Shown: positions 44,901 through 64,000 of the stretch, in pieces
Numbering within the stretch: the stretch's first letter is position 1
Layout: each line of letters begins with the position of its first letter
Program-made: the position numbers and the translations under genes
Assembly: GCF_001677475.2 (NCBI RefSeq)
Contig: NZ_CP015229.1
Source of the DNA: Escherichia coli
GTDB lineage: Bacteria; Pseudomonadota; Gammaproteobacteria; Enterobacterales; Enterobacteriaceae
Length of the DNA: 64,000 nucleotides
Strand: one strand, 5' to 3'
Notes under the pieces: model-generated
Told to the model about the DNA's origin: nothing
Seen by the model: only the letters and a program-made list of their open reading frames with translations
Databases searched by the model: none

Positions 44901-45119
44901 GTCACGTAAAGCTTGTCGAGTTGACGGGCGGCATCATATGAATTCCGCCCGAATGTGTCAACGGCAAATTGCAACGTGTAGTTTCAATCGCTGAAAAATC
45001 AGGCAAATGAACAATTTTGGAAAACCGCTCGCATTCAGTAGTTATTCATGTCACGGTTTCCTGTAAAGTGGTGTTATAAAATGAACTACTAATAGACCCC
45101 ATACATTCAGGGAATTGTT

Positions 45120-45479
45120 ATGTTCAAGGAGAGGATGACGCCAGATGAACTTGCCAGACTGACTGGCTATAGCCGCCAGACCATTAATAAATGGGTACGC
45201 AAGGAAGGCTGGACAACGTCACCAAAACCTGGCGTCCAGGGTGGCAAAGCCCGACTGGTTCACGTCAATGAACAGGTTCGTGAATATATTCGCAATGCTG
45301 AACGTCCGGAAAGTCAGGGAGAAACGCCTGCCCTTTCTGGTGATGCGCCGCTTGAAGTATTGCTGGTGACACTGGCGAAAGAGATGACGCCAGTCGAACA
45401 AAAACAGTTTACATCCTTACTTCTGCGGGAAGGGATTATCGGATTGTTACAACGCTTAGGGATTCGCGATAGCAAATAA
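45120..45479 (+). CDS. yfeC: Small putative HTH DNA-binding protein (YfeC/YfeD paralog pair, member 1)
   Basis: 119-aa ORF; N-terminal HTH-like LARLTGYSRQTINKWVRKEGW; paralogous to downstream yfeD. Confidence 0.8.
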   Translation: MFKERMTPDELARLTGYSRQTINKWVRKEGWTTSPKPGVQGGKARLVHVNEQVREYIRNAERPESQGETPALSGDAPLEVLLVTLAKEMTPVEQKQFTSLLLREGIIGLLQRLGIRDSK

Positions 45480-45480
45480 T

Positions 45481-45873
45481 ATGAAAAGATTACGCAATAA
45501 AATGACCACCGAAGAACTGGCTGAATGTCTCGGTGTGGCTAAACAAACTGTTAACCGTTGGATCAGAGAAAAAGGCTGGAAAACGGAAAAATTTCCCGGC
45601 GTGAAAGGCGGTCGTGCCAGACTTATTCTGGTCGATACGCAAGTTTGCGAGTTTATTCAGAACACGCCTGCGTTCCATAACACACCAATGTTGATGGAAG
45701 CTGAAGAGAGAATTGCTGAATACGCTCCTGGAGCACGCGCCCCGGCGTATCGACAAATCATCAACGCGATAGATAATATGACAGACATTGAGCAGGAAAA
45801 AGTCGCGCAATTTTTGTCACGTGAAGGAATTCGCAATTTCCTCGCCCGTCTCGATATTGACGAATCAGCATAA
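45481..45873 (+). CDS. yfeD: Small putative HTH DNA-binding protein (YfeC/YfeD paralog pair, member 2)
   Basis: 130-aa ORF; LAECLGVAKQTVNRWIREKGW...GGRARLILVDTQVCEFIQN parallels yfeC. Confidence 0.8.
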   Translation: MKRLRNKMTTEELAECLGVAKQTVNRWIREKGWKTEKFPGVKGGRARLILVDTQVCEFIQNTPAFHNTPMLMEAEERIAEYAPGARAPAYRQIINAIDNMTDIEQEKVAQFLSREGIRNFLARLDIDESA

Positions 45874-45875
45874 AT

Positions 45876-45915
45876 AAAAAACGGCAGGATATTATCTCCT
45901 GCCGTTTATCTTTTT
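45876..45915. terminator. Bidirectional terminator between yfeD and convergent gltX (AAACGGCAGG-ATATTATCT-CCTGCCGTTT)
   Basis: 10-bp perfect stem with flanking A/T runs. Confidence 0.6.
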
Positions 45916-45924
45916 ACACGCTAA

Positions 45925-47340
45925 TTACTGCTGATTTTCGCGTTCAGCAATAAAGGCCAGCGCTTTGTTGATACGCTCAATGCTACGTGTCTTACCGATC
46001 GCGTGAACGGTAACATCCAGTGCTGGAGACTGCCCCGCACCGGTTACGGCGACACGCAGCGGCATACCAACTTTACCCATACCCACTTCCAACTCATCCG
46101 CCGTCGCCTGAATAGCGTGATGAACGTTTTCAGCGGTCCAGTCAGTAATCGCGGCCAGTTTGTCACGAACCACTTCCAGCGGCTGACGCGCTACCGGACG
46201 CAGATGTTTTTTCGCGGCGTCGGCATCGAACTCTGCAAAATCTTCGTAGAAATAACGGCAGCTCTGTGCCATCTCTTTCAGCGTCTTGCAGCGTTCGCCC
46301 AGCAGTTTCACCAGATCAGCCAGCTGCGGGCCGTTACGGGTATCGATATTTTCCTGCTCAATGTGCCACTGTAAGTGAGTAGCAACATACTCCGGCGGCA
46401 GCGCGTTAATGTAGTGATGGTTCAGCCACAGCAACTTGTCGGTGTTGAACGCACTGGCAGATTTGCTGACGGCATTCAAAGTGAAGTATTTGATCATCTC
46501 TTCACGAGTGAAGATTTCCTGATCGCCGTGGGACCAGCCCAGACGCACCAGATAGTTCAGCAGTGCTTCTGGCAAATAACCGTCATCACGGTACTGCATT
46601 ACGCTGACCGCCCCGTGACGTTTGGACAGTTTTTTACCGTCATCGCCGTTGATCATAGAAACGTGCGCGTAAACCGGCACCGGCGCTTTCAGGGCTTTAA
46701 GAATGTTGATCTGGCGCGGCGTGTTGTTGATATGGTCTTCGCCACGGATAACATGGGTGATTTCCATATCCCAGTCATCAACAACCACACAGAAGTTATA
46801 GGTTGGGGAACCATCGGTACGGCGAATGATCAGATCATCCAGCTCCTGGTTGCTGAACTCAATCGGGCCACGGATCTGATCGTCAAAAACAACAGAACCT
46901 TCCTGCGGGTTAGCAAAACGTACAACGCACGGTTCATCATCAGCATGATGCTCATGGCTGTGGCGGCAGCGACCGTCATAACGCGGCTTCTCACCTTTCG
47001 CCATTTGTTCTTCGCGCAGCGCTTCCAGGCGCTCTTTAGAGCAATAGCATTTATAAGCAGTGCCCTCTTCCAGCATCTGATCGATCACCGCGTTGTAGCG
47101 ATCAAAACGTTTGGTCTGGAAGTACGGACCTTCATCCCACTCCAGGCTCAGCCAGTTCATGCCATCCATAATGGCTTCGATAGCTTCCGGCGTGGAACGC
47201 TCAAGATCGGTGTCTTCAATACGCAGCACGAACTCACCGCCGTGGTTACGTGCAAAAAGCCAGGAGTAAAGAGCAGTACGCGCGCCGCCAACGTGCAGAT
47301 AGCCTGTTGGGCTTGGCGCGAAGCGAGTTTTGATTTTCAT
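45925..47340 (-). CDS. gltX: Glutamyl-tRNA synthetase
   Basis: 471-aa class I aaRS with HVGG-type motif ([17 protein letters not shown]) and KMSKS-like KLSKR. Confidence 0.9.
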
Positions 47341-47553
47341 GAAATGGCCTTACGTTTAGAAAGATGCCGACAACCGGCAAATCCTGGAAAAATTGAGTGG
47401 GCGATATTCTATCACTCCCGCCTGATTCCTCAATGTAGTTCGGGTTTCTACCTTAAGCATTATTGTTTTCGTTGACAAATTGCGCAACACGGTCTGTTTT
47501 GCGATCATCTTGCTTAAATTTACGACGAACGAACAATTTCTTTAGAAAATGCG

Positions 47554-47581
47554 TTGACTCATTTTGAACTCTCCCTATAAT
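47554..47581 (+). promoter_or_regulatory. Sigma70-type promoter for the tRNA-Val/Lys operon (-35 TTGACT, 16-bp spacer, -10 TATAAT, GC-rich discriminator)
   Basis: Consensus hexamers read directly, about 18 bp upstream of the first tRNA-Val. Confidence 0.6.
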
Positions 47582-47598
47582 GCGACTCCACACAGCGG

Positions 47599-47674
47599 GG
47601 GTGATTAGCTCAGCTGGGAGAGCACCTCCCTTACAAGGAGGGGGTCGGCGGTTCGATCCCGTCATCACCCACCA
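47599..47674 (+). tRNA. valU: tRNA-Val (anticodon UAC), copy 1
   Basis: 76-nt GGGTGATTAGCTCAGCTGGGAGAGCACCTCCCTTACAAGGAGGGGGTCGGCGGTTCGATCCCGTCATCACCCACCA. Confidence 0.9.
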
Positions 47675-47718
47675 ACTACTTTATGTAGTCTCCGCCGTGT
47701 AGCAAGAAATTGAGAAGT

Positions 47719-47794
47719 GGGTGATTAGCTCAGCTGGGAGAGCACCTCCCTTACAAGGAGGGGGTCGGCGGTTCGATCCCGTCATCACCCACCA
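47719..47794 (+). tRNA. valX: tRNA-Val (anticodon UAC), copy 2
   Basis: Identical 76-nt sequence to copy 1, separated by a 44-bp spacer. Confidence 0.9.
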
Positions 47795-47798
47795 CTTC

Positions 47799-47874
47799 GG
47801 GTCGTTAGCTCAGTTGGTAGAGCAGTTGACTTTTAATCAATTGGTCGCAGGTTCGAATCCTGCACGACCCACCA
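47799..47874 (+). tRNA. lysV: tRNA-Lys (anticodon UUU)
   Basis: GGGTCGTTAGCTCAGTTGGTAGAGCAGTTGACTTTTAATCAATTGGTCGCAGGTTCGAATCCTGCACGACCCACCA. Confidence 0.9.
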
Positions 47875-47878
47875 ATGT

Positions 47879-47906
47879 AAAAAAGCGCCCTAAAGGCGCT
47901 TTTTTG
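47879..47906. terminator. Intrinsic terminator after tRNA operon (AAAAAAGCGCC-CTAA-AGGCGCTTTTTT), bidirectional with xapR
   Basis: Perfect stem with flanking A/T runs. Confidence 0.7.
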
Positions 47907-47982
47907 CTATCTGCGATTTGCGAAATTGCCTGATGCGCTTCACTTAGCAGACTACTATTTCCGGCAATTCCTGTCTCCTCAC

Positions 47983-48867
47983 CTACTGTGTCAATGCAGC
48001 CAACAGCTTAACCATCGCGGGCGTCACCTGCTGTGTTTCATAAACAATATATAAATCTGCAGGGATGCGCTGTTTGAGCGGACGGAAAATGACACCTGGC
48101 CAGTTCATTTGTGCGTAGCTGTCCGCTATCAATGTGATACCAATGCCCATACTGACCATGGCGAGTACCGTTTGCGGTTCATTAACTTCGCGAATAACAA
48201 CCGGTGAAAATCCCACCTGCTGGCAAACTCGCTGCAAAAAATCCCAGTCAGTGTACACGGGCGGCATTGTAACAAAATACTCGTCACGTAGCGCTTCCAG
48301 CGGGACGGTGGAAAATGATGAGAAATGATGCTCTTCAGGCATCGCCACCAGAAACGCCGATTCATGCAACCGTAAGCTGGTAAAACCTGCAGGTGGTTCT
48401 GTTGCCATTCGCCAGATACCGGCATCGAGTTCACGTCGTTCCAGCAGGGTCATTTGCATCGCGGGCATCTTTTCGCGAAAAAGAACGTCAACGTTAGGAT
48501 TTTCCCTGAGGAATCGCCGCATAACCGGGCGCATCCGTCCCCACATTGCCGTTCCCACTACGCCGAGTTCAATCCGCCCTGCTTCTCCCCGACCTATTTG
48601 TTCAACCCGAGCCAATACATTATTAGCATTCACCAGCAATCGACGCGATTCTTCCATCAAGATTTTGCCCGCGTGTGTCAGTACGACGCTGCGCGAATGG
48701 CGAATAAAAAGCTGCGTGCCGAGTTGATTTTCCAGCTCTTTAATATGAATACTGAGCGGAGGCTGAGACATATTTAAACGCGCTGCTGCGCGACCAAAAT
48801 GCAACTCTTCCGCTACGGCAAGAAAATAACGGAGCAACTTAAGATCTGTTCTGTATACGCGTTCCAT
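47983..48867 (-). CDS. xapR: LysR-family activator of xanthosine operon
   Basis: Start placed at MERVYRTDLKLLRYF (about 294 aa); N-terminal LysR HTH. Confidence 0.85.
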   Translation of the reverse strand: MERVYRTDLKLLRYFLAVAEELHFGRAAARLNMSQPPLSIHIKELENQLGTQLFIRHSRSVVLTHAGKILMEESRRLLVNANNVLARVEQIGRGEAGRIELGVVGTAMWGRMRPVMRRFLRENPNVDVLFREKMPAMQMTLLERRELDAGIWRMATEPPAGFTSLRLHESAFLVAMPEEHHFSSFSTVPLEALRDEYFVTMPPVYTDWDFLQRVCQQVGFSPVVIREVNEPQTVLAMVSMGIGITLIADSYAQMNWPGVIFRPLKQRIPADLYIVYETQQVTPAMVKLLAALTQ

Positions 48868-48907
48868 AATTAAGTGCTCCATATAATAAATACATCGTAT
48901 TAAATTA

Positions 48908-49069
48908 TCATGGCATAAAGTATTTCACCACCAGATATCCGACATACATAAACACAATGGATAATATACCTGGTAATACATTTGGTACAGGAATAGGCAA
49001 GCGCACGATTGTAAACAAAGCACCAATGCCAAAACCAACGCCGGAAGAAAATAAAATATCTTTCACTAA
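48908..49069 (-). CDS. Candidate small hydrophobic protein (53 codons, GTG start), unannotated
   Basis: Minus-strand ORF VKDILFSSGVGFGIGALFTIVRLPIPVPNVLPGILSIVFMYVGYLVVKYFMP with AAGG Shine-Dalgarno-like sequence about 8 nt upstream; two predicted hydrophobic segments; not in ORF track (no ATG). Confidence 0.25.
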   Translation of the reverse strand, partial: LVKDILFSSGVGFGIGALFTIVRLPIPVPNVLPGILSIVFMYVGYLVVKYFMP

Positions 49070-49118
49070 TTAACCTTTATCATAAAAGCAGCTCTGAAGA
49101 GCAGAGCTGCGAATCCTT

Positions 49119-50375
49119 TTAATGAGCCACCGCTCGATGCTTTATCTTTTCAGGGTCATGATTATATTTAAACCCAAAGAAAAATATCACTGCGAGAAAA
49201 AGAGCATATCCTGCAAACACCAGCCAGATAGTTTGCCAGTCTTTTACGCCATCCACCGAAAAGTAATCTACTGCCATACCGCTCAGAATCGAGCCAATCC
49301 ATGCGCCGACACCATTTACCATGGTCATAAAGAGCCCCTGCGCGCTGGCACGAATGCTGGAATCAACTTCCTGTTCGACAAATACCGAACCAGAAATATT
49401 GAAGAAATCGAATGCACAGCCATAAACAATCATCGACAGCAGCAGCAAAATAAATCCGGTTGTTGACGGATCGCCATAGGCGAAGAAGCCAAAGCGCAGC
49501 GTCCAGGCCACCATACTCATCAGCATGACGGTTTTAATTCCAAATCGCTTTAAAAAGAATGGGATAGTCAGTATAAAGCCCACTTCTGCCATCTGTGAAA
49601 CCGACAGTAAAATGGAGGGATATTTCACCACAAAACTGTCAGCAAACTCCGGGTTACGGGCGAAATCATGTAGGAACGGATTACCAAAAACGTTGGTAAT
49701 TTGCAGTACCGCACCCAGCATCATGGCAAAGAGGAAAAAGATGGCCATGCGTGGATTTTTAAACAGCACGAAGGCATCCAGACCCAGCTTGCTGGCAAGC
49801 GATGTGGTCGTTTTTTTCTCCGCAACCGGAATCTTCGGCAAAGTCAGCGCATAAGCCGACAGCAGCAATGACGCACCGGACGCGATATACAGCTGCAGAC
49901 TACTCAATTCCAGATGCAGCAGGCTTACTGCCCACATCGCGACAATGAACCCCACCGTACCAAAAACGCGAATGGGCGGGAAAGCGGTCACCGGGTCAAG
50001 CCCTGCCTGGGCAAGACAGGAATAAGAGACGCTGTTCGATAACGCAATAGTCGGCATAAACGCCATCGCATTGACTAACATCACCCAAAACATCATATCC
50101 GGATCAGTTACGGATGCCGCATAAAAAAGTACGCCCGCACACACCAGGTGACATAGCATGTATGCACGTTCTGCGCGCAGCCATTTGTCTGCGATGATCC
50201 CCATTATACCAGGCATAATAATCGCGGCGATCCCTTTGGAACTGTAAACCATGCCAACATTAGCGCCGGTGAAATGAAGGGTATTAATCATGTAAGAACC
50301 GAGGGTAACCAGCCAGCTCCCCCAGATAAAATATTGCAAAAAGGACATTACCTTTAAGCGCAAAGCGATGCTCAT
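49119..50375 (-). CDS. xapB: Xanthosine:H+ symporter (MFS nucleoside permease)
   Basis: 418-aa MFS ORF. Confidence 0.9.
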   Translation of the reverse strand: MSIALRLKVMSFLQYFIWGSWLVTLGSYMINTLHFTGANVGMVYSSKGIAAIIMPGIMGIIADKWLRAERAYMLCHLVCAGVLFYAASVTDPDMMFWVMLVNAMAFMPTIALSNSVSYSCLAQAGLDPVTAFPPIRVFGTVGFIVAMWAVSLLHLELSSLQLYIASGASLLLSAYALTLPKIPVAEKKTTTSLASKLGLDAFVLFKNPRMAIFFLFAMMLGAVLQITNVFGNPFLHDFARNPEFADSFVVKYPSILLSVSQMAEVGFILTIPFFLKRFGIKTVMLMSMVAWTLRFGFFAYGDPSTTGFILLLLSMIVYGCAFDFFNISGSVFVEQEVDSSIRASAQGLFMTMVNGVGAWIGSILSGMAVDYFSVDGVKDWQTIWLVFAGYALFLAVIFFFGFKYNHDPEKIKHRAVAH

Positions 50376-50435
50376 AATCGTTTCCTTGTCGCATCATATG
50401 GCCTCACTCAGTGAGGCCGTTTATTGTTGTTTTAC

Positions 50436-51269
50436 TCAGGCAATTTTGCGCAGAAAGCCGCAAATAAGATTAATAAAGTTTTGCTTTGAGAGTTCCGCTG
50501 CTGCCAGCGTTTGGGCATGAGAAAGCTTCACGTCACTCAGACCTTCCGCCATGTTGGTAATCGCAGAGACCGCAACGACTTTAAGGTCGCAATGGCGAGC
50601 TGAAATAACCTCAGGCACCACAGACATACCAACAACATCCCCACCAATAATTTGCATCATGCGAATTTCCGCCGCAGTCTCGAAATTCGGCCCCGGATAC
50701 GAGACGAACACGCCCTCCGTCAGAGAGAAACCCTCTTCTTTTGCCACTTTTTGTAACAGTGCGCGGTATTCCGCATCGTAGGCATTTGCCAGTGAGAAGA
50801 AACGCTCGCCAAAACGATCATCGTTAAGACCCACCATCGGCGTACCTGGCATGGCGTTGATATGATCTTTCAATGCGACCAGGCTGCCTGCCCCCACTTC
50901 CGGACGCAGCGAGCCTGCCGCATTGGTGCAGAACAGTAGCTCGCAGCCCAGCAGCTTAAAGGTACGAATTGCGTCAGTCATAATGGTCATTCCACGACCT
51001 TCGTAGAAATGTCCGCGACCTTTCATACATACCACCGGTACGCCCTGGAGATGGCCCAGCACTAACTCCCCCGCATGACCATGTACCGTACTTACCGGGA
51101 AGCCCGGCAGCTTTTCGTAGGAAATTGCGACAGCGTTCTCAATCTGATCGGCCAGCGCGCCCAGCCCGGAACCTAAAATAAAGGCCACTCGTGGCGTGAA
51201 ATCAGGTTTATAAGTCTTGATAATATCTATGCAAAACAGCGGGTTATGAGAAAATTGAACCTGAGGCAT
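50436..51269 (-). CDS. xapA: Xanthosine (purine nucleoside) phosphorylase II
   Basis: 277-aa PNP/MTAP family ORF. Confidence 0.9.
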   Translation of the reverse strand: MPQVQFSHNPLFCIDIIKTYKPDFTPRVAFILGSGLGALADQIENAVAISYEKLPGFPVSTVHGHAGELVLGHLQGVPVVCMKGRGHFYEGRGMTIMTDAIRTFKLLGCELLFCTNAAGSLRPEVGAGSLVALKDHINAMPGTPMVGLNDDRFGERFFSLANAYDAEYRALLQKVAKEEGFSLTEGVFVSYPGPNFETAAEIRMMQIIGGDVVGMSVVPEVISARHCDLKVVAVSAITNMAEGLSDVKLSHAQTLAAAELSKQNFINLICGFLRKIA

Positions 51270-51517
51270 ATATATCCTTTTTCTGTAGGGTGGAATCTAA
51301 CGCCTTTTTATAGCGAGGTTGTCCCGGCTCTTACCAATACACTTTTCTCACGCATTCAATAGCGATTCGATATCGATGGATTTATATCTTTTCTCTATTA
51401 ATCCACGGTAAAAACTGTATTGGCGATATTAATTCCTTTGCATTAACAATATGTCGTTTTTAGCAAACCACTTTATTAAGCAATCTACTAATAACGATCG
51501 GCATAGGGAATTATGCT

Positions 51518-52282
51518 ATGAAAAAACATCTTTTAACTCTGACACTTTCCTCTATATTAGCGATACCTGTTATATCTCATGCAGAATTTAAAGGCGGTTT
51601 TGCAGATATCGGCGTGCATTATCTGGACTGGACCAGCCGGACTACCGAAAAATCGTCGACCAAATCACACAAAGATGATTTTGGTTATCTTGAAATTGAA
51701 GGTGGCGCTAACTTTAGTTGGGGAGAAATGTACGGGTTCTTCGACTGGGAAAACTTCTATAACGGTCGCCATAATAAACCAGGTAGCGAGCAGCGTTATA
51801 CCTTTAAAAATACCAACCGTATTTACCTGGGTGACACCGGATTTAATCTTTACCTGCACACGTATGGCACCTACGGGTCTGCGAATCGTGTGAATTTCCA
51901 CGACGATATGTTCCTGTACGGTGTCGGCTACAATTTCACCGGCAGCGGTTGGTGGTTCAAACCGTTCTTTGCTAAGCGTTATACAGATCAAACCTATTAC
52001 ACTGGCGACAACGGCTATGTCGCCGGCTGGGTTGCAGGTTACAACTTTATGCTGGGCAGCGAGAAATTCACTCTTACCAACTGGAACGAGTACGAGTTTG
52101 ACCGTGACGCTACCTATGCAGCGGGTAATGGCGGTAAAGAAGGGCTGAATGGCGCAGTTGCACTGTGGTGGAATGCAACATCACACATCACTACGGGGAT
52201 TCAGTATCGATATGCGGATGACAAACTGGGCGAAGATTTTTACCAGGATGCGATAATCTACTCCATCAAATTTAACTTCTGA
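51518..52282 (+). CDS. yfeN: Putative outer-membrane beta-barrel protein
   Basis: 254-aa ORF with signal peptide and C-terminal aromatic residue (F); alternating-hydrophobic beta pattern. Confidence 0.75.
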   Translation: MKKHLLTLTLSSILAIPVISHAEFKGGFADIGVHYLDWTSRTTEKSSTKSHKDDFGYLEIEGGANFSWGEMYGFFDWENFYNGRHNKPGSEQRYTFKNTNRIYLGDTGFNLYLHTYGTYGSANRVNFHDDMFLYGVGYNFTGSGWWFKPFFAKRYTDQTYYTGDNGYVAGWVAGYNFMLGSEKFTLTNWNEYEFDRDATYAAGNGGKEGLNGAVALWWNATSHITTGIQYRYADDKLGEDFYQDAIIYSIKFNF

Positions 52283-52320
52283 TTGATTCCTGCCGGGGCT
52301 CCCGGCAGTATGAATTCACT

Positions 52321-53247
52321 CTATATCTGATACAACGGATCCCCTTCCCGCCCAGCCATTAGCGCATGGCCCTGGTCTCGTACCACGTCCCATAACGCTT
52401 GTGCGGCGGTGGAAAGTGAACGGTTCTTCCTGCGCACCAGCATCAACTGGCGTTCCACCACCGGCGTAATGCGCTTTACCACCAGCGGGCTACCTTCAGG
52501 TAACGGCAGCGCCAGTGCGGGAAGAATACTGATGCCGATGCCTGCGGCTACCATCGGGAACAGCGTCGCCGGATGTCCAATCTCCTGCACAATATTCGCC
52601 TGAATACCATTGCGCGCCAGCGCTGCGTCAATCAGCGGTCGGCTGCCTGACGCGTAATCCTGCAACACCAATTTCGCTCCCTGTAATGCCTGCCAGGGTA
52701 CATAATCTTCCACGGCCAAAGCGCTATCGCGATGGCAAAGCAGAAAGAAAGGCTCGGAAAGAATCGCTTCACATTGCAGATCGCCCACTGGGCCTGGATC
52801 GATGACGATGCCAAAGTCGACATCTCCCTGGCGAATACTTTCCATCACCCACTGCTGCGGACGATCGTGCAGGACAAACTGAATATCTGGATAGCGGCGA
52901 TGGCTTTCAGCAATGCATTGCGGAATAAGATGCGCGGAAATGGTCTGGCTGGCAGCGACGCGAACTTTTCCGCTCAGTTGTTGCCCCATACGCCCGGTAT
53001 CGCGCAACGTACTGTTAAGTTCATCCAGTAGTCGCTCAAGACGCAAAGCCAACTGCTGCCCTGCATCTGTAAGCACCACTTCACGCGTGGTTCTGTCCAG
53101 CAGGCGAACACCAGTATGATTTTCCAGCTCCTTCACACTGTGACTCACTGCCGACTGGCTCAGGCCGATACGCTCTCCTGCACGACTAAAACTTTTCTCC
53201 TGCGCTACTGTGACGAAAACCTTTAATTGTTTTAAAGAATAATTCAT
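52321..53247 (-). CDS. yfeR: LysR-family transcriptional regulator
   Basis: 308-aa ORF with N-terminal LysR HTH ([38 protein letters not shown]). Confidence 0.8.
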
Positions 53248-53336
53248 CTGTTTTCTTCATGAATGGATGCAATAAATCAATTTTATTTCTCAAACTGGAA
53301 GAAGCACAATAGAACCATCGATCATCTGGAGTCTTT

Positions 53337-54335
53337 ATGAAACTTTTTCGTATCCTCGATCCTTTCACCTTAACCCTGATCACGGTGGTGTTGCTGGCCT
53401 CTTTCTTTCCGGCCAGAGGCGATTTCGTCCCCTTCTTTGAAAATCTGACCACCGCAGCTATTGCCCTGCTGTTCTTTATGCACGGCGCGAAGTTGTCGCG
53501 TGAGGCGATTATTGCTGGCGGTGGTCACTGGCGACTGCATTTGTGGGTAATGTGCAGCACCTTCGTGCTGTTTCCGATTCTGGGTGTACTGTTTGCCTGG
53601 TGGAAACCGGTAAATGTCGACCCGATGCTCTACTCCGGTTTTCTCTACTTGTGCATTCTCCCCGCTACCGTGCAGTCTGCAATCGCCTTCACGTCAATGG
53701 CGGGCGGTAACGTCGCGGCGGCGGTTTGTTCTGCGTCAGCATCCAGCCTGCTGGGGATTTTCCTTTCGCCATTGCTGGTTGGCCTGGTGATGAATGTTCA
53801 CGGTGCAGGGGGCAGCCTTGAACAGGTCGGTAAAATTATGCTGCAACTGCTGCTGCCGTTTGTGTTGGGGCATCTTTCCCGGCCGTGGATTGGTGACTGG
53901 GTGTCGCGCAATAAAAAATGGATTGCGAAAACTGACCAGACGTCCATTCTGTTGGTGGTTTATACAGCGTTCAGCGAAGCCGTCGTTAATGGTATCTGGC
54001 ATAAAGTTGGCTGGGGATCATTGCTGTTTATCGTGGTGGTCAGCTGCGTTCTTCTGGCTATCGTGATTGTAGTTAACGTCTTTATGGCACGCCGACTGGG
54101 CTTCAATAAAGCAGATGAAATTACTATCGTCTTTTGTGGTTCGAAAAAGAGTCTGGCAAATGGCATCCCGATGGCAAACATTCTGTTCCCCACAGCGGTG
54201 ATCGGTATGATGGTGCTGCCCCTGATGATTTTCCATCAGATCCAATTGATGGTCTGTGCGGTGCTGGCGCGTCGATACAAACGCCAGACCGAACAGTTAC
54301 AGGCGCAGCAGAAAAGCCGCGCCAATAAAGCTTAA
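53337..54335 (+). CDS. yfeH: Bile acid:sodium symporter (BASS) family membrane protein
   Basis: 332-aa polytopic ORF. Confidence 0.8.
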   Translation: MKLFRILDPFTLTLITVVLLASFFPARGDFVPFFENLTTAAIALLFFMHGAKLSREAIIAGGGHWRLHLWVMCSTFVLFPILGVLFAWWKPVNVDPMLYSGFLYLCILPATVQSAIAFTSMAGGNVAAAVCSASASSLLGIFLSPLLVGLVMNVHGAGGSLEQVGKIMLQLLLPFVLGHLSRPWIGDWVSRNKKWIAKTDQTSILLVVYTAFSEAVVNGIWHKVGWGSLLFIVVVSCVLLAIVIVVNVFMARRLGFNKADEITIVFCGSKKSLANGIPMANILFPTAVIGMMVLPLMIFHQIQLMVCAVLARRYKRQTEQLQAQQKSRANKA

Positions 54336-54550
54336 AGCGGACGCTTCAGGGGCTGGACCAGTTGCGTCAGCCCCTCAGTTTTAATCAGCAGCGTGATTTG
54401 CATTAGCTCACCGAGCTTCCCTGCCGGGAACTCATCTTTGCGGGCAAACCACAGAAGATACTCCTCCGGCAGGTCGATTAAGCGACGCCCTTTGTATTTG
54501 CCAAACGGCATTATCGTATTGGCTATTTCAATCAGCTGCTCTTTTTCCAT
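54332..54550 (-). CDS. ypeB: Small DUF3820-type protein
   Basis: Start placed at MEKEQLIEIANTIMPFGKYKGRRLIDLPEEYLLWF (72 aa); track ORF is 5'-extended into ligA 3' end. Confidence 0.7.
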   Translation of the reverse strand: MEKEQLIEIANTIMPFGKYKGRRLIDLPEEYLLWFARKDEFPAGKLGELMQITLLIKTEGLTQLVQPLKRPL

Positions 54551-54551
54551 C

Positions 54552-56576
<2,025 letters not shown>

Positions 56577-56637
56577 TCAATGCTAAAAACCCCCGACAAG
56601 CGGGGGTTCGAAGAGGAGTTAATTTGCCTTAAGTGTA

Positions 56638-57636
56638 TCAGGCGTTGGCGTCTTTGACTTCGCGGATGATGTCCTGGTACTCGCGCAATTTCTGCGGAGT
56701 CATCATACGGCGCTGATCGTCAAGCACTACACCGCCCACTTCATCGGCAATATGCTGCGCAGATTGCAGCATCAGCTTGAAGTTCTGCAGCTCGTCACCG
56801 TAAGACGGTACCTGCATAAAGATAGTGACACCCGGAGTAGTGAAATCCTTCATTTCAGGATCAAAGGTTCCCGGTTTCACCATATTCGCCAGGCTAAATA
56901 ACGCCGGGCCGCTGCCATCCGGGCTAAGATGACGATGGTAAATATTCATATCGCCAAAAATGAAGCCCGCTTGTTGAATGCTGTTAAGAAGCAGTTCACC
57001 GTTTAGCTCGCTACCGTGATGCGCCGCGACGTTCATGATAATCACCGCTTCTTTGCGCTTCGGTTTATCCATAACTGGAGCCGGTTCCGCTACAGGCTCA
57101 GGCTGTGGTGCCGCTACAGGCTCTGCAGGCTGGAAAGCCTGTTGTGCCGGTTGCGGTGCTGAATGCACTGGCTGCGGCGCTGATGCGACCTGTGGCGAAA
57201 CTGGCTGCTGCAACGGCTGTTCAGGCTGCGGCTGATAGGCAGGCTGCTGCACGGGTTGCTGCACCGGCTGCGCTGGACGCGGAGCATGTTGCGGCGGTAC
57301 CTGCGCTTCAGGCGGCTGCTGGACCGGTTGACGCGGCTGTGCAGACGCATAAGGCGGTTGGTACTGGTGTTGCGGCGACGGACGAGCAGCCTCATGCTCC
57401 TGGGCGTTAGCCGGGGCATGATTCACGCGGTGAACACGAACCTCACCAACGCCCTCATCATCTTCGACATCCTCGTCATAAGAATCGTCGTCACGTTTTG
57501 ACTTCATTCGTTTTAATGGCCGATCGCGGAACATAGAAGATCGTTCTTTACGGCTGGTCCAGAAACCATGTACCAGTAAAGCGATTATGGCGATCGCGCC
57601 AACAATGATTAATATCAGACGCAAATCCTGCATCAT
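56638..57636 (-). CDS. zipA: Cell division protein ZipA (FtsZ membrane anchor)
   Basis: Start placed at [21 protein letters not shown]; N-terminal TM, P/Q-rich linker, C-terminal FtsZ-binding domain. Confidence 0.9.
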
Positions 57637-57865
57637 TATATTCTCTGTTGTTCTAACACCTTGCCACCACGGCAAACATTTACTCACTAAGAGTATTTGC
57701 CGATTACCTCAAGTGCAAGTGCACTATTAACTTTCACAGCACAAAGATAGATGAAATCGTGCTTTTTGCTGTTTTTTCGAACATATCCTAACTGTCCATT
57801 GCGCAATTACCCGGTAAAATACGCAGAATTTTCCTGGGATTGGTCAAAAGGAGCTCATCCTGATT

Positions 57866-58627
57866 ATGGTTTCATCATTCACATCTGCCCCACGCAGCGG
57901 TTTTTACTATTTTGCGCAAGGCTGGAAGCTCGTCTCGCAACCTGGGATTCGGCGTTTCGTTATTTTACCGCTGCTGGTCAATATTTTGTTGATGGGGGGC
58001 GCATTCTGGTGGCTCTTTACGCAACTCGATGTCTGGATCCCGACTCTCATGAGTTATGTTCCGGACTGGTTACAATGGCTGAGCTATCTGTTGTGGCCTC
58101 TGGCTGTCATCTCTGTGCTGTTAGTGTTTGGCTATTTCTTCTCAACGATTGCTAACTGGATTGCCGCTCCGTTCAATGGTTTATTGGCTGAACAACTGGA
58201 AGCACGATTGACTGGCGCTACACCGCCAGATACCGGGATTTTCGGTATCATGAAAGATGTGCCGCGAATCATGAAACGCGAATGGCAAAAATTTGCCTGG
58301 TATCTGCCGCGCGCAATTGTATTGCTAATTCTTTACTTCATCCCTGGTATTGGGCAAACCGTCGCGCCGGTACTGTGGTTCCTGTTTAGCGCCTGGATGT
58401 TAGCCATCCAGTATTGCGATTACCCCTTCGATAACCACAAAGTGCCGTTTAAAGAGATGCGCACCGCCCTGCGCACACGCAAAATCACCAATATGCAGTT
58501 TGGTGCTTTAACCAGTCTGTTTACGATGATCCCTCTGCTTAATCTGTTCATCATGCCCGTTGCCGTTTGTGGTGCGACGGCGATGTGGGTCGATTGCTAT
58601 CGCGATAAACACGCGATGTGGCGGTAA
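57866..58627 (+). CDS. cysZ: Sulfate transporter CysZ
   Basis: 253-aa polytopic membrane ORF. Confidence 0.9.
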
Positions 58628-58811
58628 CAATCTACCGGTTATTTTGTAAACCGCTTGTGTGAAACAGGGGTGGCTTATGCCGCCCCTTATTCCATCTTGC
58701 ATGTCATTATTTCCCTTCTGCATATAGATATGCTAAATCCTTACTTCCGCATATTCTCTGAGCGGGTATGCTACCTGTTGTATCCCAATTTCATACAGTT
58801 AAGGACAGGCC

Positions 58812-59783
58812 ATGAGTAAGATTTTTGAAGATAACTCGCTGACTATCGGTCACACGCCGCTAGTTCGCCTGAATCGCATCGGTAACGGACGCATTCTGGC
58901 GAAGGTGGAATCTCGTAACCCCAGCTTCAGCGTTAAGTGCCGTATCGGTGCCAACATGATTTGGGATGCCGAAAAACGCGGCGTGCTGAAACCAGGCGTT
59001 GAACTGGTTGAACCAACCAGCGGTAATACCGGGATTGCACTGGCCTATGTCGCTGCCGCTCGCGGTTACAAACTTACCCTGACCATGCCAGAAACCATGA
59101 GTATTGAACGCCGCAAGCTGCTGAAAGCGTTAGGTGCAAACCTGGTGCTGACCGAAGGTGCTAAAGGCATGAAAGGCGCAATCCAAAAAGCAGAAGAAAT
59201 TGTCGCCAGCAATCCAGATAAATACCTTCTGCTGCAACAATTCAGCAATCCGGCAAACCCTGAAATTCACGAAAAAACCACCGGTCCGGAGATCTGGGAA
59301 GATACCGACGGTCAGGTTGATGTATTTATTGCTGGCGTTGGCACTGGCGGTACGCTGACCGGCGTCAGCCGCTACATTAAAGGCACCAAAGGCAAGACCG
59401 ATCTTATCTCTGTCGCCGTTGAGCCAACCGATTCTCCAGTTATCGCCCAGGCACTGGCTGGTGAAGAGATTAAACCTGGCCCGCATAAAATTCAGGGTAT
59501 TGGCGCTGGTTTTATCCCGGCTAACCTCGATCTCAAGCTGGTCGATAAAGTCATTGGCATCACCAATGAAGAAGCGATTTCTACCGCGCGTCGTCTGATG
59601 GAAGAAGAAGGTATTCTTGCAGGTATCTCTTCTGGAGCAGCTGTTGCTGCGGCGTTGAAACTACAAGAAGATGAAAGCTTTACCAACAAGAATATTGTGG
59701 TTATTCTACCATCATCGGGTGAGCGTTATTTAAGCACCGCATTGTTTGCCGATCTCTTCACTGAGAAAGAATTGCAACAGTAA
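58812..59783 (+). CDS. cysK: Cysteine synthase A (O-acetylserine sulfhydrylase)
   Basis: 323-aa ORF with PLP-lysine motif (SVKCRIG) and GTGGT loop. Confidence 0.95.
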
Positions 59784-59804
59784 TGCCAGCTTGTTAAAAA
59801 TGCG

Positions 59805-59832
59805 TAAAAAAGCACCTTTTCAGGTGCTTTTT
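59805..59832 (+). terminator. Intrinsic terminator after cysK (AAAAAAGCACC-TTTTCA-GGTGCTTTTTTG)
   Basis: Perfect stem followed by T-run. Confidence 0.7.
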
Positions 59833-60166
59833 TGTGGCCTGCTTCAAACTTTCGCCCCTCCTGGCATTGATTCAGCCTGTCGGAACTGGTATTTAACCAG
59901 ACTAATTATTTTGATGCGCGAAATTAATCGTTACAGGAAAAGCCAAAGCTGAATCGATTTTATGATTTGGTTCAATTCTTCCTTTAGCGGCATAATGTTT
60001 AATGACGTACGAAACGTCAGCGGTCAACACCCGCCAGCAATGGACTGTATTGCGCTCTTCGTGCGTCGCGTCTGTTAAAAACTGGCGCGAACAATACAGG
60101 CTAAAGTCGAACCGCCAGGCTAGACTTTAGTTCCACAACACTAAACCTATAAGTTGGGGAAATACA

Positions 60167-60424
60167 ATGTTCCAGCAAGAAGTTACCATTACCGCTCCGA
60201 ACGGTCTGCACACCCGCCCTGCTGCCCAGTTTGTAAAAGAAGCTAAGGGCTTCACTTCTGAAATTACTGTGACTTCCAACGGCAAAACCGCCAGCGCGAA
60301 AAGCCTGTTTAAACTGCAGACTCTGGGCCTGACTCAAGGTACCGTTGTGACTATCTCCGCAGAAGGCGAAGACGAGCAGAAAGCGGTTGAACATCTGGTT
60401 AAACTGATGGCGGAACTCGAGTAA
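60167..60424 (+). CDS. ptsH: PTS phosphocarrier protein HPr
   Basis: 85-aa [23 protein letters not shown]..., active-site His15 context. Confidence 0.95.
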
Positions 60425-60468
60425 TTTCCCGGGTTCTTTTAAAAATCAGTCACAAGTAAGGTAGGGTT

Positions 60469-62196
60469 ATGATTTCAGGCATTTTAGCATCCCCGGGTAT
60501 CGCTTTCGGTAAAGCTCTGCTTCTGAAAGAAGACGAAATTGTCATTGACCGGAAAAAAATTTCTGCCGACCAGGTTGATCAGGAAGTTGAACGTTTTCTG
60601 AGCGGTCGTGCCAAGGCATCAGCCCAGCTGGAAACGATCAAAACGAAAGCTGGTGAAACGTTCGGTGAAGAAAAAGAAGCCATCTTTGAAGGGCATATTA
60701 TGCTGCTCGAAGATGAGGAGCTGGAGCAGGAAATCATAGCCCTGATTAAAGATAAGCACATGACAGCTGACGCAGCTGCTCATGAAGTTATCGAAGGTCA
60801 GGCTTCTGCCCTGGAAGAGCTGGATGATGAATACCTGAAAGAACGTGCGGCTGACGTACGTGATATCGGTAAGCGCCTGCTGCGCAACATCCTGGGCCTG
60901 AAGATTATCGACCTGAGCGCCATCCAGGATGAAGTCATTCTGGTTGCCGCTGACCTGACGCCGTCCGAAACCGCACAGCTGAACCTGAAGAAGGTGCTGG
61001 GTTTCATCACCGACGCGGGTGGCCGTACTTCCCACACCTCTATCATGGCGCGTTCTCTGGAACTACCTGCTATCGTGGGTACCGGTAGCGTCACCTCTCA
61101 GGTGAAAAATGACGACTATCTGATTCTGGATGCCGTAAATAATCAGGTTTACGTCAATCCAACCAACGAAGTTATTGATAAAATGCGCGCTGTTCAGGAG
61201 CAAGTGGCTTCTGAAAAAGCAGAGCTTGCTAAACTGAAAGATCTGCCAGCTATTACGCTGGACGGTCACCAGGTAGAAGTATGCGCTAACATTGGTACGG
61301 TTCGTGACGTTGAAGGTGCAGAGCGTAACGGCGCTGAAGGCGTTGGTCTGTATCGTACTGAGTTCCTGTTCATGGACCGCGACGCGCTGCCCACTGAAGA
61401 AGAACAGTTTGCTGCTTACAAAGCAGTGGCTGAAGCGTGTGGCTCGCAGGCGGTTATCGTTCGTACCATGGACATCGGCGGCGACAAAGAGCTGCCATAC
61501 ATGAACTTCCCGAAAGAAGAGAACCCGTTCCTCGGCTGGCGCGCTATCCGTATCGCGATGGATCGTAAAGAGATCCTGCGCGATCAGCTCCGCGCTATCC
61601 TGCGTGCCTCGGCTTTCGGTAAATTGCGCATTATGTTCCCGATGATCATCTCTGTTGAAGAAGTGCGTGCACTGCGCAAAGAGATCGAAATCTACAAACA
61701 GGAACTGCGCGACGAAGGTAAAGCGTTTGACGAGTCAATTGAAATCGGCGTAATGGTGGAAACACCGGCTGCCGCAACAATTGCACGTCATTTAGCCAAA
61801 GAAGTTGATTTCTTTAGTATCGGCACCAATGATTTAACGCAGTACACTCTGGCAGTTGACCGTGGTAATGATATGATTTCACACCTTTACCAGCCAATGT
61901 CACCGTCCGTGCTGAACTTGATCAAGCAAGTTATTGATGCTTCTCATGCTGAAGGCAAATGGACTGGCATGTGTGGTGAGCTTGCTGGCGATGAACGTGC
62001 TACACTTCTGTTGCTGGGGATGGGTCTGGACGAATTCTCTATGAGCGCCATTTCTATCCCGCGCATTAAGAAGATTATCCGTAACACGAACTTCGAAGAT
62101 GCGAAGGTGTTAGCAGAGCAGGCTCTTGCTCAACCGACAACGGACGAGTTAATGACGCTGGTTAACAAGTTCATTGAAGAAAAAACAATCTGCTAA
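60469..62196 (+). CDS. ptsI: PTS enzyme I (phosphoenolpyruvate-protein phosphotransferase)
   Basis: 575-aa ORF with [21 protein letters not shown] phospho-His region. Confidence 0.95.
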
Positions 62197-62236
62197 TCCA
62201 CGAGATGCGGCCCAATTTACTGCTTAGGAGAAGATC

Positions 62237-62746
62237 ATGGGTTTGTTCGATAAACTGAAATCTCTGGTTTCCGACGACAAGAAGGATACCGGAACTATTG
62301 AGATCATTGCTCCGCTCTCTGGCGAGATCGTCAATATCGAAGACGTGCCGGATGTCGTTTTTGCGGAAAAAATCGTTGGTGATGGCATTGCTATCAAACC
62401 AACTGGAAACAAAATGGTCGCGCCTGTAGACGGCACCATTGGTAAAATCTTTGAAACCAACCACGCGTTCTCTATCGAATCTGATAGCGGCGTTGAACTG
62501 TTCGTCCACTTCGGTATCGACACCGTTGAACTGAAAGGCGAAGGCTTCAAGCGTATTGCTGAAGAAGGTCAGCGCGTGAAAGTTGGCGATACTGTCATTG
62601 AATTCGATCTGCCGCTGCTGGAAGAGAAAGCCAAGTCTACCCTGACTCCGGTTGTTATCTCCAACATGGACGAAATCAAAGAACTGATCAAACTGTCCGG
62701 TAGCGTGACTGTGGGTGAAACCCCGGTTATCCGCATCAAGAAGTAA
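62237..62746 (+). CDS. crr: PTS glucose-specific EIIA (EIIA-Glc)
   Basis: 169-aa [39 protein letters not shown]... Confidence 0.95.
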
Positions 62747-62769
62747 TTCTTGCCGCAGTGAAAAATGGC

Positions 62770-62798
62770 GCCCATCGGCGCCATTTTTTATGCTTCCG
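62770..62798. terminator. Bidirectional terminator between crr and convergent pdxK (AAAAATGGCGCC-CATC-GGCGCCATTTTTT)
   Basis: Perfect stem with A/T flanks; overlaps pdxK stop codon. Confidence 0.7.
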
Positions 62799-63639
62799 CC
62801 AGCGGCGGCAAAATCAATTCATCGCTCTCATGCTGCTGGGTATAGCGCATCACCTCCAGCACACGTAATCCCGCGCTATGTACCGCGTCAGTTAATTCCT
62901 TACCTTTCAACAAGCCACTGATAAGCTGAGCACAAAACAGGTCGCCAGTCCCTTTCAGGTCAGTTTTAACCCGTGAATGGGAAATGACATTCACGCTGTC
63001 GGCACTGACCACCACCACCTGCATCTCCTGATTTTCTTCATTACCGGAGACGCTGGTAATCACCACCCATTTTAATGTGTCTGAAAGCAGACTTTTTGCG
63101 GCAGCAATGGCACTGTCGAGATCGCGGCAATTTTTACCGGTCAGGATTTCCAGCTCAAAAATATTGGGGGTAATTCCCTGCGCCAGCGGCAGTAAATATT
63201 GTCGATACGCCTCGGGAAGGTCAGGTTTGACATAAATTCCGCTATCAATATCGCCAATCACTGGATCGACCATGATCAATAGGTCAGGATGATCTTTGCG
63301 TAGTGCAGTCAGCCACTCGGCAAGGATTTTGATTTGCGATGCCGTTCCCATATAGCCCGTGGTTACAGCACGAAGTTGGCGCAACGCATCACGCTCCTGA
63401 AGCGCACGCAAATAGCCGCTAAACCATTCGTCCGGAATCGCACCACCGTAGAAAGTGTCATAATGCGGTGTATTGCTCAGCAATACAGTCGGCACGGCAA
63501 AGACATTCAAGCCGTTCTGTTTTATAGCAGGCACCGCAATGCTGTTGCCTACGCTGCCGTACACTACCTGCGACTGCACGGCGACGATATCCGCCTGCAA
63601 TGCCCTGCTCTTATCGTTAAACAACAACAAACTACTCAT
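62788..63639 (-). CDS. pdxK: Pyridoxal/pyridoxine/pyridoxamine kinase
   Basis: 283-aa ribokinase-superfamily ORF. Confidence 0.85.
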
Positions 63640-63652
63640 TTAATTTTTTCTC

Positions 63653-64000
<348 letters not shown>

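Follow-up and report, generated by a model that had tools for sequence, protein, structure and literature searches.

The analysed window is a stretch of 64,000 nucleotides from Escherichia coli, and the feature considered here is the zipA gene, located at 56638..57636 on the minus strand. According to the list of open reading frames, the CDS comprises 999 nt (332 codons and a stop) with a start that reads MMQDL. The ORF that contains it begins at a GTG further upstream and is longer (56638..57687, minus strand; 349 aa). MMQDL lies 17 codons into this ORF, and the RefSeq annotation does not include those 17 residues. For a strain whose zipA is 99.9% identical, RefSeq gives this 999-nt CDS as well. 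The gene order cysZ-zipA-ligA in the window corresponds to that of K-12 and of other annotated E. coli genomes, and the 332-aa protein is ZipA, the cell-division protein by which gammaproteobacteria tether FtsZ to the membrane.

The domains of the protein were delimited by reading the translation, by a Pfam match, and by the boundaries published for K-12. The N-terminal membrane anchor (residues 7-28; 57553..57618, minus strand) is a hydrophobic run in the translation, with K-12 boundaries according to PMC6904479. It is identical to its K-12 counterpart, as is the whole of residues 1-119, which carries the anchor and the charged segment. The domain at the C terminus that binds FtsZ (residues 198-321; 56674..57045, minus strand) matches Pfam ZipA_C (PF04354) with E=3.2e-46 and 156.8 bits versus a cut-off of 23, and its protein sequence is identical to that of K-12. 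The proline/glutamine (P/Q)-rich disordered linker, for which PMC6904479 gives residues 86-185 in K-12, occupies residues 86-189 in the window, i.e., the K-12 segment plus four extra residues (57070..57381, minus strand). Thus, its placement at 57100-57420 in the first-pass annotation was roughly right. The P/Q-rich character is evident from the composition, and the disorder is taken from the literature. PMC6904479, citing Ohashi et al. 2002, presents the P/Q domain of ZipA as an unstructured flexible tether. The P/Q linker is not mentioned in a ZipA paper published in mBio in 2021 (PMC8669495).

Two further features of the window were observed apart from the coding regions. On the minus strand, positions 56585-56609 hold a GC-rich hairpin, GAACCCCCG-CUUGU-CGGGGGUUU, which is followed by U residues and folds with -15.5 kcal/mol (z = -2.9). 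The zipA stop lies approximately 30 nt before it and the start of ligA approximately 18 nt after it. Judged from sequence and predicted folding, it resembles an intrinsic terminator, or an attenuator, placed between the two genes; a scan for consensus terminators gave no call here. A cluster of tRNA genes, Val(tac)-Val(tac)-Lys(ttt), is situated at 47599-47874. Strain AST215 carries three tRNA-Val genes, a Lys gene and an annotated RtT sRNA in this cluster, and strain O103:H2 has two Val and one Lys as in the window. These differences are strain-to-strain variation in tRNA copy number.

In the linker, the segment 57072-57420 (residues 73-188, 116 aa) contains 32 P, 27 Q and 21 A residues, is encoded mostly by the codons CAG, CCG, CCT, CAA and GCN, and has a G+C content of 66%. 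Reiterated PVQQP-type units had been noticed in the first-pass annotation, and these are real at the protein level, since PVQQP and QPVQQ occur three times each, a multiplicity matched by only 129 of 5000 composition-preserving shuffles. The DNA behind these units consists of short, degenerate repeats. A repeat search gave 32-nt copies that are only 63-75% identical, with one pair lying 12 nt apart, and Tandem Repeats Finder at a minimum score of 30 reported no repeat in 56900-57600, two degenerate 12-nt copies being below its reach.

Slippage in the repeat tract had also been proposed to account for the many spurious antisense ORFs predicted over the linker, and this part does not hold. The five non-coding frames over 57072-57420 contain 15 stops in about 580 codons, i.e., 2.6 per 100, compared to approximately 6 per 100 in the rest of zipA and 3.6 in ligA, and four of these other frames hold ORFs of 48-101 aa. 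Such ORFs occur because the composition of the linker as a whole lowers the number of out-of-frame stops, and not because of any 12-nt difference; the antisense ORFs of ligA are longer still (168 and 157 aa). For annotation, the additional ORFs over the zipA linker are therefore best regarded as by-products of composition.

Compared to ZipA of K-12 MG1655 (b2412, NP_416907.1; 987 nt, 328 aa), protein and DNA alignments place a single gap of 12 nt, or 4 aa, in the K-12 gene. The two proteins differ in both length and sequence, and the measured lengths of 332 and 328 aa bear out the earlier estimate of 331-332 versus about 328. Over the whole gene, 11 substitutions separate the window from K-12, of which nine are synonymous. 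The remaining two affect codon 120 (57277..57279, minus strand), which is CGT (Arg) in the window and CAT (His) in K-12, and codon 152 (57181..57183, minus strand), which is TCA (Ser) in the window and CCA (Pro, residue 148) in K-12. One antisense frame shares the wobble positions of zipA, so the substitutions are mostly synonymous in that frame as well, and the pattern does not discriminate for or against an antisense gene.

The length difference resolves into the copy number of a short tandem unit. Read along the coding strand, the sequence is CAG CCG GTG CAG CAA CCC GTG CAG CAG CCT in the window and CAG CCG GTG CAG CAG CCT in K-12. The first copy, CCGGTGCAGCAA (CCG GTG CAG CAA; 57256..57267, minus strand), encodes P124 V125 Q126 Q127, and the second, CCCGTGCAGCAG (CCC GTG CAG CAG; 57244..57255, minus strand), encodes P128 V129 Q130 Q131; both were located by sequence and K-12 alignment. 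Between the copies, two sites differ synonymously (CCG/CCC and CAA/CAG) and 8 nt are shared, GTGCAGCA, across which the 12-nt gap can be placed anywhere. The single K-12 unit, CCGGTGCAGCAG, is a hybrid: its 5' end corresponds to copy 1 (CCG) and its 3' end to copy 2 (CAG). The units are thus arranged head to tail, and the shorter allele lacks exactly one of them, as in a tandem-repeat polymorphism. The slippage in a repetitive tract suggested in the first-pass annotation agrees with this arrangement, in that the alleles differ by the copy number of a short in-frame tandem unit.

Repetitive sequence is generally difficult to assemble, and in a GC-rich tract of this kind the additional 12 nt might in principle reflect a sequencing or assembly artefact. 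This explanation has next to no probability and is refuted by the occurrence of the allele elsewhere. Of 5,426 complete genomes of E. coli in RefSeq, 2,027 contain the exact 46-nt junction of the two-copy form. The window and the draft assembly GCA_033745465.1 show 100% identity over 8,016 nt (51552-59567), including zipA; since this assembly is independent, the allele of the window is genuine and not an assembly error. Furthermore, E. coli strain AST215 has a RefSeq annotation for the 332-aa protein, WP_001317975.1, with 100% protein identity to the ZipA of the window. The zipA DNA of AST215 differs from that of the window by one synonymous base at 57340, and its flanking DNA is diverged by approximately 2.4%.

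At this position the window carries a synonymous A (GCA, Ala99 of ZipA), and K-12, the other Escherichia species examined and all E. coli strains whose sequence was read carry G (GCG). No exact match to the window zipA at 57340 occurs among the complete RefSeq genomes; the draft assembly GCA_033745465.1 shares the A. Concerning the wider surroundings, the closest complete RefSeq E. coli genome is at most 98.5% identical over 45000-64000 (19 kb), and the lineage of the window seems to be absent from the set of complete genomes. AST215 differs from the window by one base in 56500-58000, yet its identity over 16 kb is 97.6%, a mosaic typical of recombination.

Both forms of the unit are very common. 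The 37-nt junction of the one-copy form was observed in 3,035 of the 5,426 complete genomes and is 100% identical in 3,033 of 3,036 records, which is consistent with one origin. A 201-nt query over 5,427 records gave approximately 2,378 full-length matches at an identity of at least 95% (two-copy form, about 44%) and approximately 3,048 that fall short of this by 12 nt, at 90-95% (one-copy form, about 56%), with about 62 records aligning over less than 80% of the query. Among the matches listed, O157:H7 and UTI89 carry two copies, and K-12, BL21, DH10B, O103:H2 and O111:H8 carry one. Given the phylogroups to which these strains presumably belong, the list puts the deletion on the A/B1 side, which fits a single deletion. 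Two zipA matches are situated on records labelled as plasmids and one of the 5,426 genomes gave no zipA match; these cases are probably due to mislabelled replicons or incomplete assembly. The 332-aa two-copy form is an ordinary, common and catalogued allele of a well-known gene, with nothing novel about it. In the literature on the length of the ZipA linker, we found no paper that describes a polymorphism in PVQQ copy number.

With regard to the direction of the change, the description of the protein as longer than in K-12 is accurate as to length, but the expansion in this strain that it implies is unlikely. For comparison, four non-coli Escherichia representatives (L004-L007) from a scan of one genome per species were considered as outgroups, using translations and a DNA alignment. 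At the site of the indel, the QPVQQP unit is present two or three times in E. albertii (L006), in L005, whose record is titled Escherichia coli, and in L007. In all three, the first unit ends with CAA and the last with CAG, the same order as in the window. Both the divergence of the copies and the CAA...CAG order in the outgroups suggest that the window form is the older one and the K-12 form is derived. L004, the closest outgroup, has a single unit that keeps CAA, and thus represents an event separate from that of K-12.

Conversely, an ancestor with one copy, as in K-12, could have given rise to the strain or lineage of the window through a slippage event that duplicated the 12-nt unit. Slippage can expand a tract as well as contract it, as a three-copy allele in one genome (700481) indicates, and the single copy of the closest outgroup would agree with a one-copy ancestor. 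A fresh duplicate, however, should consist of identical copies, yet the copies of the window differ at two of 12 positions, and these two synonymous differences argue against a recent duplication. The order of CAA and CAG, which the window shares with E. albertii and two further Escherichia species, and the retention of CAA in L004, which marks a different event, also speak against a gain, which we regard as unlikely. On the basis of these comparisons, the one-copy form of K-12 is probably a derived 12-nt deletion and not the starting point of an expansion in the window strain.

Two observations bear on how this polarity is to be read. The unit of the outgroups is 18 nt long (QPVQQP) and not 12 nt, and the two-copy allele of E. 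coli differs from the outgroups by 6 nt. The K-12 form could in principle have arisen by loss of 12 nt or by direct loss of one 18-nt unit from an outgroup-like ancestor; on both paths it would be the derived form. In addition, recombination is evident around zipA and could blur the reading of the deletion as having a single origin. If the K-12 form is indeed derived, K-12 is not an ancestral reference for E. coli at this site, as the laboratory strain would carry the derived, shorter allele of zipA.

Changes of length at this site have occurred more than once. The site holds one copy in 3,035 genomes, two in at least 2,027 and three in a single genome, and to these one independent deletion is added. 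The latter is present in strain GMM076, whose zipA also comprises 987 nt but has the junction GCG CAA CCC GTG CAG CAG, i.e., a long-type background that has lost 12 nt at other breakpoints. Strain 700481 carries the three units CCGGTGCAGCAA CCCGTGCAGCAA CCCGTGCAGCAG and encodes a ZipA of 336 aa. A larger change was observed in strain EM10-18-28 (L002, NZ_CP063476.1), in which zipA (1001-1888) encodes 295 aa due to an in-frame deletion of 37 aa in the linker. This putative deletion, which is unique among the 5,426 complete genomes, falls between two copies of CAGCAGCC. All length variants of zipA seen (888, 987, 999 and 1011 nt) are in frame. Hence natural isolates tolerate ZipA proteins of 295-336 aa, which is small evidence that the exact length of the tether is not critical.

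In 80 ZipA sequences taken from Escherichia and genera related to it in the Enterobacteriaceae, the linker measures 88-140 aa, whereas the parts on either side hardly vary in length (72-75 aa at the N-terminal and 144-151 aa at the C-terminal end). On average, identity to the window amounts to 0.90 for the N-terminal part, 0.88 for the C-terminal part and 0.59 for the linker. Neutrality of the 4-aa change is plausible from these sequence data, and it fits both the high frequency of the two alleles and the range of linker lengths among relatives.

Instead, the length of the linker might be under selection, with the 328- and 332-aa alleles tuning the distance between FtsZ filament and membrane, or filament bundling, and being kept by lineage. 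In this sense, the PVQQ copy number (1, 2 or 3) would be a selected knob for tether length that differs between A/B1 and B2/D/E and affects Z-ring geometry or FtsZ bundling. Both alleles are indeed frequent and appear to follow lineage, and the predominance of synonymous substitutions in zipA indicates that the gene as a whole is constrained. A frequency linked to lineage, however, is also what neutral inheritance predicts. The drift of linker length and sequence among close genera, the loss of 37 aa in an isolate whose genome is completely assembled, and the description of the segment as an unstructured flexible tether in PMC6904479, with reference to Ohashi et al. 2002, likewise argue against selection on length. 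Tuning of the membrane distance and a copy-number knob are therefore both considered very improbable.

Taken together, we favour, with a probability of about 85%, the reading that the window carries a common two-copy allele of zipA, that the K-12 unit arose from it by a slippage-type deletion of 12 nt, and that this change has little or no functional effect. Under this reading, the 8 nt shared by the copies, GTGCAGCA, would have been the place where unequal exchange or slippage during replication removed 12 nt and left the hybrid unit of K-12, and the tract keeps slipping in both directions within E. coli. The disordered P/Q linker joins the membrane anchor to the FtsZ-binding domain, and a change of four residues among approximately 100 disordered ones should affect function little, if at all.

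In comparison with known systems, the ZipA of the window agrees with that of K-12 in all respects other than this unit and a few substitutions. The proteins share 99% identity, the anchor, the charged region and the FtsZ-binding domain are identical, and the cysZ-zipA-ligA neighbourhood is the same; the window differs by the extra PVQQ (4 aa), by R120 in place of H and S152 in place of P148, and by nine synonymous differences. The locus differs from microsatellite contingency loci in that zipA has only two or three degenerate copies and no on/off switching. A phase-variable locus would be characterised by a frame shift or a switch in promoter spacing, and zipA does not follow this pattern, the unit being 12 nt long and all variants seen remaining in frame. 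With so few copies, mutation at this site of zipA is probably much rarer than at true microsatellite contingency loci. The resemblance is instead to slippage-generated in-frame tandem-repeat polymorphisms, as the 12-nt unit of zipA occurs in one, two or three copies within a segment described as disordered.
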